Assembly: GCA_041690135.1 (NCBI GenBank)
Contig: JAWLHY010000003.1
Coordinates: 1-64,000 of the forward strand
Direction: 5' to 3'
Length of the DNA stretch: 64,000 bases
Source: Armatimonadota bacterium
GTDB taxonomy: Bacteria; Armatimonadota; SYMT01
The notes beneath the pieces were generated by a model, which was not told where the DNA came from, did no database searches, and saw only the letters and a list, made by a program, of their open reading frames with translations. Position 1 is the first letter of the stretch, and the number at the start of each line of letters is the position of its first letter. The translations under genes and the position numbers were made by a program. Positions 58,892 to 62,986 of this stretch are shown here, piece after piece.

Positions 58892-59638
58892 CTAACGGGT
58901 CTCGGCCCATTCCCAGCAGCGCACGGTCACTACATTGCCTTCGGTCACCAGCGCTCCCGCGTAGCCGGGGCCGGGGTCGAGCGACCAGAGCCGCCACCGA
59001 TGCAGGGCTTCCGGATCGTGGCGCGCACCCAGCAGCGCCGCCGGTTGGTCCGGGTGGAGCGACACGTCAAACTCGTCCAGGGGCAGCGCCAACCCCGTTC
59101 CGAGCGCCTTGATGTACGCTTCTTTCCGGGACCAGCAGAGGAAGAAGGCCGTCCGCCGCGCCTCCGCGGGCAGCGCGAACAGCGCCTCCACCTCGGCCGG
59201 GGAGAAGAACCGGTGGGCGATCTTCTCGCACTCCACCTCCGGGCGGAACCGCTCCACGTCCACCCCCACCTCCCCACCCCACGTCACCGCATAGAGCGCC
59301 AGCCCCCCCGAGTGCGACATATTGAACCGGATCCCCGCCGCCGCGCCCGCTCCGGCAAGAGACGGCTTGCCGTGGGGACCGTACTCGAACCGCAGGTCGC
59401 GCGGCGCCGCACCGGTGTACCGCGCCAGGATCTCCCGCAGGAACCCCCGCCCGGCGATGAAGTGCCCGCGGTGTTTCGGAAACCGAAAGCGGTCCGCCCG
59501 TTCCCGTTCGTCCGGTGAGAGCCACTCGTAGTAGCGGGACAGATAAGCCCCGGGCAGCGCTAGGGATGCACGCCAGACGTGCACCTCATCCGCACTGAGT
59601 TCCGGAGTCGTGGAAGGAGTCACCCAGGGCTTCTGCAT
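58892..59638 (-). CDS. 4'-phosphopantetheinyl transferase (Sfp/HetI type)
   Basis: GKP, FNMSHS, VGVDVE, WSRKEAYIKA.G.GL. Confidence 0.95.
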   Translation of the reverse strand: MQKPWVTPSTTPELSADEVHVWRASLALPGAYLSRYYEWLSPDERERADRFRFPKHRGHFIAGRGFLREILARYTGAAPRDLRFEYGPHGKPSLAGAGAAAGIRFNMSHSGGLALYAVTWGGEVGVDVERFRPEVECEKIAHRFFSPAEVEALFALPAEARRTAFFLCWSRKEAYIKALGTGLALPLDEFDVSLHPDQPAALLGARHDPEALHRWRLWSLDPGPGYAGALVTEGNVVTVRCWEWAETR

Positions 59639-60235: not shown

Positions 60236-60458
60236 CTCTGCAGTCAGGACGGTTGCGGGCGCTCTCGAGTTATCTTCGCACGCTCGGCGGCAACACGCCA
60301 GCCCGCCTGCGGATCCTCGCACGGTTGATATCAATGGGGCCCTCGAGGAAACCGCCACCGCATAGGAAACTCCGATATGACGGAACGAGAACACCGCGAT
60401 AGGGTACCTTGGAGAGGTGGGAAGTCGCCTTTCTCTCCAGGCGAGGGAAGCACGGATA

Positions 60459-61037
60459 GTGGCAGTGGCGTGCGGAAACAGCGGAGCGACGTGCGACCAG
60501 TGCGGCGCGGCGGTTTGCGGAAGGCAGGCGGTGATGAGCCGGATCCTGGGTGGAAAGGAACGCCGGCTGTGCCTCCCCTGCCTGAGCGGCTCGCTGGATA
60601 CGCCGCCCGACCGCCTGTGCGAGTTGGTGGGCAACTACCTGGCGCGGCGGGACTGCTATCGACGGGACTGGCGCCGCGCTTCGGTGTGCGACCGGGACGG
60701 GCAGGCTCCCTGCTGCCCCAGTCGGCTGGAGAATGCGCCCGACCCGCCCGCGTGGTTCCGGCCGGAACTGTTCGAGCGGACGGACCTGGACGATTTGCCC
60801 GACCCGGACCTGGTGGTCGACGCCGAGGAAGCCGGCTGCGGGGACCTGATGGTGCTCTTGATGCGCTCCATCCGGAAGCTTGCACCGGGGCAGGTCCTCT
60901 CGATCACCGCCCGCGACCCGGGCGCCGAAGCCGACATCCCGAGCTGGAGCCGCCTCACGGGACACGCCCTGCTGGCCGGCCCCACCGGTGAAGATGAAGC
61001 CACGTACTACATCCAGAAGAAGCAGGAGGGCGGATAA
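60459..61037 (+). CDS. Cys-rich domain fused to a TusA/SirA-like sulfur-carrier domain
   Basis: CDQC..C..CLPC..C..C..C..CC, then VDA...CGDL...I..L.PGQVL....DPGA..DIP.W....GH; start uncertain (60417 or 60459). Confidence 0.8.
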   Translation: MAVACGNSGATCDQCGAAVCGRQAVMSRILGGKERRLCLPCLSGSLDTPPDRLCELVGNYLARRDCYRRDWRRASVCDRDGQAPCCPSRLENAPDPPAWFRPELFERTDLDDLPDPDLVVDAEEAGCGDLMVLLMRSIRKLAPGQVLSITARDPGAEADIPSWSRLTGHALLAGPTGEDEATYYIQKKQEGG

Positions 61038-61174
61038 CCCCTCCCACGGCGCCATGCGCCAACCTTCAACCCCTGGCCCCCGCGGGGGGCTTCAACCTTC
61101 AACCTGCAACCTGCAAACCTTCCAACTTTGATCCCCTTATGGGGAACACGTACCGACCATTGGAGGATCCAAAG

Positions 61175-61534
61175 ATGCCTAAGCTGATGATCTCGCTCAC
61201 CTGCGCCAGGGACAATACGGACAAGGCTACCGTGGCCTTTGTCGTCGCCAACGCCTCCGTCGCGTCCGACGTGGAGACGGTGGTCTTCCTCAGCACCGAG
61301 GGCGTCCGCCTCGCACAGAAGGGGTACGCCGATGATATCCACGAAGAGGGCTTCAAGGCCCTGAAGGAGCTGATGGACGACTTCGCCGAGTTCGGCGGCA
61401 AGATCTACGTCTGCTCGCCCTGTTTCAAGAAGCGCGGCCTGGATGAGAACAACCTGGTGGAAGGCGCGGCCATCGTCGGTGGGGCCAAGGCGGTCGAGTT
61501 CCTGACCAGCGGCGCGAGCTGCATTAGCTATTGA
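61175..61534 (+). CDS. DsrE/DsrF-like family protein
   Basis: ATVAF..A, VFL..EGV, GGKIYVCSPC.KKRG; GGAGG RBS. Confidence 0.88.
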   Translation: MPKLMISLTCARDNTDKATVAFVVANASVASDVETVVFLSTEGVRLAQKGYADDIHEEGFKALKELMDDFAEFGGKIYVCSPCFKKRGLDENNLVEGAAIVGGAKAVEFLTSGASCISY

Positions 61535-61540
61535 TCTTCC

Positions 61541-62833
61541 ATGAGTGAATCGATCGACGAACGAGATGCCTTCTCCGTCATCGGCATCACCCCGGACCGG
61601 GTGGTGGATGGCGGAGATCTCGACTGCGGGTCCGGCCTGCTGCTGATCATCCGGCGCGCCATGAACCAGCTCGAGCCAGGGCAGGTGTTGGAGGTGGACA
61701 GCACCGAGATCAGCGTGCGTGACGACCTGCCCGCCTGGTGCCGGATGACCCAGAACGAGTTCCTCACCGCGCTGGACGGGGGAGACCGGATCAAGTACCT
61801 GGTCCGGAAGGGCCCCGGCACGGGCGCCTGGGGCAAGCCGGACTGGGGCATCGAGCTGCCGCGGCGCACCGGCAACCGCCTGGACGTGCGGGACTGGCTG
61901 ACCGGCCGCGTGGGGGAGATCCCGCAGGAGGCGCCAACCTACTTCGGGTTCGTGCCGCGGGGAGCGGTGCCGGAGCCGGGCATGCCGGACTACGGCTTTG
62001 CCATCAACCACAAGGACGACGTGTGGGCGGACAACATTGGCGACCTGTACGAGCAGGCGAAGGCCGCCCAGTGGGACGCCTCCTCCGCCATCGCCTGGGA
62101 CCAGCTCCCCAAGCTGGATGAGGACGTGGAGCGGGCGGTCTGCCAGATCATGACGTTCCTGGCGGAGAACGAGTACTCGGCCCTTTACATCCCGAGCAAG
62201 TTCTTGCCGCAGATCAACCCGCAGTTCACGGAAGTGGTCCTCTTCCTGGCTACCGTGGTGAACGACGAGGCCCGTCACATCGAGGCGTTCACCAAGCGCG
62301 CCCTCGCCAATGGCGGCGGTCTCCAGTACGCGTCCGCGGCGACGGAGTGGTCCCTCTACAGCCTGCTGATCCAGGAAGACTACTTCAACTCCAGCTTCCT
62401 GCTCCATGTGCTAGGGGAGGGGACCTTCCTCGACCTGCTGCGGTTCTGCGAGGAGTTCGCGCCGGATCCCGTGACGAAAGATGTCGTTCGGCGCGCTCGC
62501 CAGGACGAGGCACGGCACGTGGCTTACGGCGTGGCGCACCTGAAGCACCAGCTCCAGCAGCACCCGGAGAACATGAACCGGCTGTTGGAAGCCGTGGAGT
62601 CCCGCGCGGATGCCATCGCGGCGACCTCCGGCACCACCCCCTTCGTGATGGAAGCGCTGGCCGTACTGGCCGGCGGCGGTGCCTCGCCGAAGCAGATGTC
62701 CGCCGGGGTGGAGAAGGTGAAGGAGCTGTACCGGACCATGGACCAGAACCGCACGCAGCGCCTGGTCCAGGCCGGGGTTTCTCTCGATCTCGCCCGTAAG
62801 ATGAGCGAGATGCACACGCCGAATTTCATGTAA
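61541..62833 (+). CDS. TusA-like domain fused to a ferritin-like di-iron domain
   Basis: DGGDLDCGSGLL...L.PGQVLE....DLPAWC; then ENE..DEARH..GE..DEARH. Confidence 0.85.
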   Translation: MSESIDERDAFSVIGITPDRVVDGGDLDCGSGLLLIIRRAMNQLEPGQVLEVDSTEISVRDDLPAWCRMTQNEFLTALDGGDRIKYLVRKGPGTGAWGKPDWGIELPRRTGNRLDVRDWLTGRVGEIPQEAPTYFGFVPRGAVPEPGMPDYGFAINHKDDVWADNIGDLYEQAKAAQWDASSAIAWDQLPKLDEDVERAVCQIMTFLAENEYSALYIPSKFLPQINPQFTEVVLFLATVVNDEARHIEAFTKRALANGGGLQYASAATEWSLYSLLIQEDYFNSSFLLHVLGEGTFLDLLRFCEEFAPDPVTKDVVRRARQDEARHVAYGVAHLKHQLQQHPENMNRLLEAVESRADAIAATSGTTPFVMEALAVLAGGGASPKQMSAGVEKVKELYRTMDQNRTQRLVQAGVSLDLARKMSEMHTPNFM

Positions 62834-62834
62834 T

Positions 62835-62986
62835 TCAGGTGTTCAGGTAGTCAGGTGTTCAGGTAGTCAGGTGTTCAGGTGGTCAGGTAGTCAGGTGGTC
62901 AGGTAGTCAGGTGTTGAGGTAGTCAGGTGTTCAGGTGTTCAGGTAGACCGAACACCCGAACACCGAACACCCGAACACCGAACACC
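62835..62986. repeat. Octamer tandem array (TCAGGTRK x14) plus inverted (C)CGAACAC arm between convergent genes
   Basis: 14 units at 62835-62946; reverse-oriented units at 62947-62986; could fold into a hairpin. Confidence 0.9.

Follow-up and report, generated by a model that had tools for sequence, protein, structure and literature searches.

A TusA/DsrE cysteine-carrier trio joined to a ferritin-like di-metal enzyme in an Armatimonadota genome

In the TusA/DsrE3 cascades of the sHdr and Dsr systems, the cysteine of the TusA CPxP motif and a conserved DsrE3 cysteine carry sulfane sulfur or thiosulfonate, according to sections of reports on Metallosphaera DsrE3A-TusA (PMC4175335) and Hyphomicrobium DsrE3C-TusA (PMC11094781); the latter describes CPXP as characteristic of TusA, and the former gives DsrE3A a Cys-X7-Cys pattern. 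Helical di-metal bundles are known from R2lox (PDB 4HR0) and from the azoxy synthase VlmB (PDB 6D9F/8WVR), presented in sections of PMC11705231 as a diiron oxygenase of valanimycin biosynthesis. Here we describe three genes that bring both kinds of protein together in an Armatimonadota bacterium (assembly GCA_041690135.1, contig JAWLHY010000003.1, positions 1 to 64,000; this whole stretch of 64,000 nucleotides is referred to as the window). The operon is a rare hybrid of a conserved carrier trio, TusA-DsrE-TusA, with a di-iron enzyme family that mostly has other partners, and we read it, with moderate confidence, as a relay of cysteine carriers coupled to a di-iron oxidase, sulfane sulfur being the favored cargo. 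The three genes are co-oriented, with gene 3 starting 6 nt past the DsrE stop:

60459..61037, + strand: gene 1, Cys-rich N-terminal domain plus TusA1, 192 aa
60492..60760, + strand: Cys-rich N-terminal domain of gene 1, with C12xxC15, C38xxC41 and C66 invariant
60798..61025, + strand: TusA1 domain (PF01206), GCGDL; Cys127 codon at 60837-60839
61175..61534, + strand: gene 2, DsrE family (PF02635), 119 aa, CSPC; C80 at 61412-61414, C83 at 61421-61423
61541..62833, + strand: gene 3, TusA2 (DCGSG), Trp-rich linker and ferritin-like di-metal domain, 430 aa
61580..61813, + strand: TusA2 domain, with the predicted DsrE docking face; Cys29 codon at 61625-61627
62036..62830, + strand: VlmB/R2lox-type domain; predicted ligands E211, E243, H246, E293, E323 and H326

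Three co-oriented genes with GCGDL, DCGSG, CSPC and two DEARH motifs had been proposed in a first-pass annotation of this DNA; the motifs were verified in the window, and the assignments were borne out by the open reading frames (ORFs), by Pfam scores (TusA, 38.2 bits for gene 1 and 31.6 for gene 3 against a cut-off of 28.6; DsrE, 58.2 for gene 2 against 22.7) and by AlphaFold2 folds. The gene 1 model (predicted local distance difference test, pLDDT, 90) has a TusA fold at residues 114-189, and the TusA1 and gene 3 models match E. coli TusA (3lvj_C) with Z of 12.9 and 13.4, respectively. Gene 1 starts with a GTG preceded by a purine-rich stretch, in a reading frame that opens at 60417, and its 39 homologs span 113-361 aa. 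Because the same three-gene order was found again in further genomes, the arrangement is not due to chance; the co-occurrence anticipated in the first pass was confirmed at seven distinct loci with DsrE and a TusA(DCG)-ferritin fusion.

The locus shares with the sHdr/Dsr cascades the TusA and DsrE folds, equivalent cysteines, adjacent genes and a TusA-DsrE contact (predicted in the window). It differs from them in that both TusA loops have CGD or CGSG (GCGDL and DCGSG) in place of CPxP, DsrE has a CxxC pattern unlike the Cys-X7-Cys of DsrE3A, and there are two TusA domains, one of them fused to an enzyme. Genes 1 and 3 fall below the TusA equivalog NF001423 (42.7 and 27.5 bits, cut-off 78), and DsrE falls below the TusD/DsrE/DsrE2 equivalogs (TIGR03012, 14.2 against 89.25; NF047629, 13 against 210); on these scores, the parts are all in known fold families yet fail the named equivalogs. 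That no Dsr, Sox, sHdr or mnmA gene is adjacent, as first noted, held and could in part be extended to the whole genome (9.1 Mb, 97% complete), where no dsrA was found, no soxB scored over cut-off, and mnmA lies on a different contig; sHdr and LbpA genes, for which no genome-wide search was made, were not recognized among the neighboring ORFs. A direct role in tRNA thiolation (TusABCDE/MnmA) was rejected, as DsrE lacks a TusD-type score and mnmA is not linked to the operon.

TusA1 C127, at the same motif position as the TusA active cysteine, is invariant in 92 of 92 sequences, and C80 and C83 of DsrE are invariant in 67 of 67, with C80 aligned to a cysteine of PDB 3mc3. In the alignment, Cys29 of gene 3 falls on the active cysteine (CPEP) of E. 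coli TusA, at the start of helix 1. No TGA codon was found at the relay cysteines in 112 DCG, 114 xCG, 110 CxxC and 62 FMCG matches, so selenocysteine at these positions was rejected. The five cysteines of the Cys-rich domain are also invariant (92 of 92), and the domain is probably a site for Zn or another metal. This domain is absent at loci L002, L012 and L013, and because many loci have a stand-alone TusA1, it is optional. It matched no Pfam family over cut-off, an Atlas search gave no informative match (best 0.91, a hypothetical protein; a zinc-ribbon lead at 0.85), and the match lists of fold searches with gene 1 were filled by its TusA part.

A search with the gene 1 alignment gave 524 metagenome loci, of which the best 80 were mapped. 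DsrE was adjacent in 74, and the third gene was a TusA(DCG)-MetE-like fusion in 34, a TusA(DCG)-OsmC fusion in 16 (a MetE-like gene mostly coming next) and a TusA-ferritin fusion in 1. Over all loci, 101 distinct DsrE genes were counted; 98 have a TusA immediately upstream and 84 a TusA-bearing gene downstream (TusA-MetE 43, TusA-OsmC 24, TusA-ferritin 7, stand-alone or truncated TusA 10), with none visible after the remaining 17, many of which are at a locus or contig end; this sample is biased by the queries used. It is the carrier trio that is conserved: TusA(xCGD/E), DsrE(CSPC) and a TusA(DCG) domain whose fused enzyme is exchangeable. The guess that OsmC or methionine synthase-like partners would be found was right, as these are the usual third domains, but a cysteine desulfurase, guessed at the same time, is not a regular neighbor and as a conserved one is not supported (0 of 80 trio loci and one divergent case on a Paracoccus plasmid). 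The MetE-like and OsmC cassettes have the same three carriers in the same order as the window, with DsrE 49-87% identical; the window differs in that its client is a di-iron domain and its genome has no MetE-like gene. Median identity of the gene 3 TusA domain is 55-56% to the DCG-TusA of MetE/OsmC fusions versus 35% to Cys-less ferritin TusA.

Some individual trio loci deserve separate mention. Plasmid pFER4 of Paracoccus ferrooxidans (L162:3639-11853) carries a trio with a TusA-MetE-like fusion, together with the divergent cysteine desulfurase; downstream lie selA and trxB. At L248 and L249, the third TusA (DCGS) stands alone, without an enzyme domain. A porin-like gene with no NCBIfam match is upstream of the trio in 13 of the 80 metagenome loci (L083, L085, L086, L110, L152 and others).

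The gene 3 model (83-row alignment; pLDDT 93, predicted TM-score, pTM, 0.86) consists of the TusA domain and an R2/VlmB-type helical bundle. An AurF/MiaE-type kinship had been proposed for the latter, and the ferritin-like di-metal fold and ligand set stood, but the closest relatives are others. By Z, the nearest structure is VlmB (23.3; root mean square deviation, rmsd, 2.9; 256 aligned), then R2lox (21.5; rmsd 3.2; 252 aligned), which Foldseek ranks first; AurF and CmlI lie well under VlmB at 14.2 and 14.7, respectively, and MiaE was not among the matches listed from Pfam, NCBIfam and fold searches. The E/ExxH/E/ExxH ligands align with those of VlmB and R2lox, E211 lining up with the first R2lox glutamate. 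All six predicted ligands are invariant in 44 of 44 close homologs, and E243, H246, E293, E323 and H326 are kept in 120 of 120 homologs. Gene 3 differs from VlmB and R2lox in its low identity to them (16-19%), its N-terminal TusA, an extra H289 and a conserved C-terminal HTPNFM, and valanimycin-type gene context was not seen at the window. Because the domain reaches the cut-off of neither the R2lox family NF006200 (33.5 bits against 194) nor Pfam AurF (14.6 against 29.6), it constitutes a separate di-metal oxidase family, which presumably uses iron and O2. Distant members of the family occur as tandem pairs without TusA (L244, L245, L246 and L250-L253; G010 phylum sample), which suggests a two-subunit oxygenase.

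At least 579 confirmed GTDB loci matched gene 3, and the best 80 of these were mapped. In 58 there is a gene with an acyl-CoA dehydrogenase (ACAD) fold and/or a PhnD fold (substrate-binding protein-like, SBP-like), and 4 have TusA and DsrE partners as in the window; the TusA part is lacking or lost in 14, and no partner is shown in 4. At 11 of these 80 loci, mostly in Latescibacterota and Gemmatimonadota (L037, L040, L047 and others), and also at L262-L268, the ferritin has no TusA and a cupin gene often comes next. The top NCBIfam scores of the ACAD and PhnD-fold proteins are to Rv1679 and Rv1680, below cut-off. The ACAD has MAPT in place of the dehydrogenase YEGT and thus lacks the catalytic Glu. 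Inspection of 12 N-termini of the PhnD-fold protein showed no evident signal peptide; a single row of a published table gives Rv1680 as a putative phosphonate transporter component. Most gene 3 homologs, including a paralog in the same genome, sit with genes like those of the uncharacterized Rv1679 (FadE16)/Rv1680/Rv1681 cassette (NF049984, NF049985, NF049973), of which the Rv1681-family protein has, like gene 3, a TusA-like N-terminus. At one locus over the Rv1680 cut-off, a Cys-less TusA-like domain is fused to an Rv1681-family radical S-adenosylmethionine (SAM) enzyme instead of ferritin. In contrast, the window has neither partner gene beside its cassette, a di-iron rather than a radical-SAM domain (gene 3 scores 15.1 against the NF049973 cut-off of 380), and a TusA that keeps its cysteine.

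Among 83 distinct TusA-ferritin fusions, 7 have the cysteine together with DsrE, 71 have no cysteine and stand with ACAD/SBP, 4 have neither a cysteine nor a visible partner, and 1 (L023) has the cysteine with ACAD/SBP. All 7 fusions next to DsrE thus keep Cys29, compared with 1 of the 76 without DsrE, which favors a functional link between Cys29 and DsrE. In a quick tree of the ferritin domain, which has long outgroup branches and leaves out the frameshifted locus L072, the Cys+DsrE versions occupy three or more separate positions, three changes being forced by well-supported branches, and a single recent domain swap is accordingly not supported. Action of the trio in trans for all Cys-less ferritins is not supported either, since 10 of the 50 genomes with a ferritin (covering 50 of 79 intended loci) were found to have this DsrE subfamily, 4 of the 10 being Cys+DsrE loci and 1 a weak match; a search without a positive control detected the subfamily in none of the 201 genomes sampled from the G047 phylum. 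An obligate heterodimer with the paralog is not supported by genomes G055 and G136 (69% complete), which show the Cys+DsrE copy only. Four of the genomes are unpublished: G045 contributes a row to the ferritin counts, and G351, G398 and G438 contribute rows to one of the background samples used below; no conclusion hinges on them.

Beside the ferritin, trio and flavoprotein are nearly mutually exclusive (7 versus 72 loci, both together in none). This would be expected of an electron relay, in which the cysteines of DsrE CSPC and of the two TusA domains would hand on disulfide-exchange equivalents to re-reduce the di-iron center or the extra Cys of MetE-like clients, with the ACAD flavoprotein doing so in the Cys-less operons; the invariant CxxC, the chemical diversity of the clients, the missing catalytic Glu of the ACAD and the absence of a conserved ferredoxin or reductase gene next to the cassette fit the same explanation. 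However, direct thiol reduction of di-ferric centers is usually slow, TusA and DsrE are characterized as sulfur carriers rather than reductases, and a thioredoxin reductase is linked at the plasmid locus only and at none of the 80 trio loci. In addition, one operon (L084:1-2465) combines both inputs, with ACAD and PhnD-fold genes directly upstream of a Cys-rich TusA, DsrE and a TusA(DCGS) whose gene is cut by the contig end. We consider an electron relay possible but rather unlikely.

The retention of W66 in nearly all members suggests that the Cys-less TusA domain keeps a structural or docking role, and because a Cys-less TusA is retained before both the ferritin and the Rv1681-type radical-SAM enzyme, its role there would be non-catalytic. 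Such a role, the loci at which the trio has a stand-alone third TusA and no enzyme, and a catalytic domain that looks unchanged could all be accommodated if the coupling were regulatory or loose, the trio sensing persulfide or redox state and switching the enzyme via TusA2 without supplying substrate, or being merely co-transcribed after a gene fusion. Indeed, the ferritin-domain residues common to Cys+DsrE versions also occur in Cys-less members, and 11 of the 20 listed positions that best separate the two are in the TusA domain. This explanation is very improbable in our estimation, because in three lineages every TusA2 next to DsrE has retained its cysteine and docking face, and because the host genome offers the trio no other evident client: PF01206 is reached over cut-off genome-wide by the window domains alone and PF02635 by the window DsrE alone (a weaker, Cys-less TusA is in the paralog), and there is no MetE-like gene.

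A complex model of three DsrE copies with the gene 3 TusA domain scored 0.81 versus 0.04 for the best control; 116 of 157 solved pairs reach the mark for this score, compared with 2 of 215 mismatched ones, and these figures apply only roughly here. Model runs agreed in at least 85% of contacts, with a partner pLDDT of at least 86. TusA2 is predicted to dock on the DsrE trimer with its Cys29 loop at CSPC, the modeled interface comprising TusA2 28-32, which includes Cys29, and DsrE S81-P82 within CSPC, at the subunit boundary. At 21 interface positions, the window residue is kept in 77% (41% elsewhere) for the DCG-TusA of MetE/OsmC fusions and in 33% (29% elsewhere) for Cys-less ferritin fusions, figures that are partly circular because DCG defines the groups and the predictor drew on these conserved columns as well. 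No solved DsrE-TusA complex was among the PDB matches, no search having been aimed at one. The locus also shows that selection acts on TusA-like domains lacking CPxP as partners of DsrE.

In the carrier relay that we favor, DsrE would be a trimer, as expected from its family and modeled with three copies, and its CSPC site at the subunit interface would swap a cysteine-bound group with TusA1 Cys127, through a contact that we infer, and with TusA2 Cys29. The precedent of TusA/DsrE3 for carriage of sulfane sulfur or thiosulfonate favors a sulfane relay TusA1-DsrE-TusA2, in which the cargo would most likely be a persulfide or thiosulfonate. TusA2 would then pass the group to, or take it from, an O2-activating di-iron center on the same polypeptide, delivery to the enzyme being slightly favored. 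Since the trio has MetE-like and OsmC-like clients elsewhere, it would be a general input module, serving MetE-like zinc enzymes and OsmC-like domains in those settings; in most members of the di-iron family, an ACAD-fold flavoprotein and a cytoplasmic binding-protein-fold protein would replace this input, and the TusA2 Cys and the DsrE-docking face would decay. Thus of the original idea that carrier-bound sulfur meets a di-iron center, the coupling of a Cys relay to the enzyme is likely, given the modeled contact, with the reservation that most of the family lacks that cysteine. More tentatively, and with considerable doubt, the CG-type trio may be a stand-alone plug-in module for chalcogen delivery, the di-iron oxidase forming or breaking a C-S or C-Se bond on carrier-bound cargo, and the hybrid may reveal the substrate shared by the MetE-like/OsmC and the ACAD + SBP-like cassettes, including the radical-SAM form; no described di-iron precedent for such chemistry on carrier-bound cargo was found in the literature.

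Several observations weigh against the sulfane relay. Conservation of the TusA cysteines, on which the first-pass proposal had leaned, is complete for TusA1, but the fused-TusA Cys is absent from 75 of the 83 fusions (it is kept in 30 of the 120 closest homologs), so that the di-iron chemistry of the family must be independent of it, and no ferritin-domain position is unique to Cys-bearing versions. L023 retains the cysteine beside ACAD/SBP in a genome in which DsrE of this subfamily was not detected. The seven Cys+DsrE loci amount to about three independent lineages, and the interface statistics carry the circularity mentioned above. Neither TusA has CPxP, and the CxxC of DsrE matches neither single-Cys DsrE nor the Cys-X7-Cys of DsrE3A and suits disulfide chemistry equally well. 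Finally, di-iron enzymes are not the only ones with which the trio occurs, and no sulfur donor is linked to it, the absence of cysteine desulfurase from the 80 trio loci included.

The host genome has SelA, SelD and tRNA-Sec, and the relay could instead carry selenide or selenopersulfide, with the di-iron domain oxidizing or salvaging a selenium compound. All 6 genomes with the Cys+DsrE version had SelD, as did 42 of the 44 remaining TusA-ferritin genomes, and genome G002 has selD 11.4 kb away on the same contig. The trio has SelD or SelA as a neighbor at 3 of 80 metagenome loci and also on the Paracoccus plasmid. However, related genomes in these counts are not independent, and SelD is frequent in background samples as well (62 of 111, 79 of 111, 65 of 91 and 138 of 151; 56-91%). 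It is also in all 7 genomes of the host's own family, 3 of which lack the cassette, but in 5 of 7 trio-only genomes and not in the genome with the radical-SAM version. Neither SelD nor SelA was found at the 80 ferritin loci within the fetched flanks (58 of them at least 12 kb), and the relay cysteines show no TGA. Selenium as the cargo is thus quite improbable.

Close relatives of the window cassette are Armatimonadota records, and it is present in 3 of 6 other genomes of its own family. The paralogous cassette of the host (G000:C1:1298204-1301495, equivalent to L081:6205-9496) consists of an ACAD-fold gene, a PhnD-fold gene and a Cys-less TusA-ferritin fusion that lies at G000:C1:1300218-1301495 and is 52% identical, and the gene divergent from the cassette is one that we take to be Fur/PerR-like; genome G071 also carries both cassettes. 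The trio and the ACAD cassette also occur together in two cultured, non-pathogenic bacteria, Neobacillus sp. LXY-4 and Ammoniphilus sp. YIM 78166. A search for promoters and terminators of the window operon gave no sigma-70 site and no convincing terminator, and three expression runs with 6-9% of the words yielded merely scattered short contigs. Converging on the cassette is a beta-barrel-like gene (window 62986-64008, - strand) with a weak PF13557 (MetA-pathway) match, of which a 64% homolog lies just upstream of the cassette in locus L001 and others on other contigs in genomes G055 and G136. An Sfp-type 4'-phosphopantetheinyl transferase gene upstream (window 58892-59638, - strand) is not conserved beside related cassettes. 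Short tandem repeats at window 62835-62986 and 61090-61122 (TCAGGTGG x13.8, CCGAACAC x5 and CTTCAAC x4.6) are not specific to this operon, as similar arrays occur 12-62 times in the genome.

We found no published description of the cassette in full text, although subscription papers and supplements may mention it, and the main text of PMC7857596 does not mention TusA, DsrE, OsmC or ferritin. With no earlier paper found for a hybrid bridging DsrE and a TusA-ferritin fusion, the operon is a new version of the TusA/DsrE kind of cysteine relay. It joins two widespread gene sets that lack a known function and shows a common plug-in TusA docking domain, which suggests related chemistry in the two sets, both of which probably handle sulfur or selenium. 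Because it requires just three proteins, all small and soluble, and the contact predicted for them is a specific one (Cys29 against CSPC), the question of whether the cargo is sulfur, selenium or electrons is directly testable, and the Cys-less paralog of the same genome provides a built-in control.

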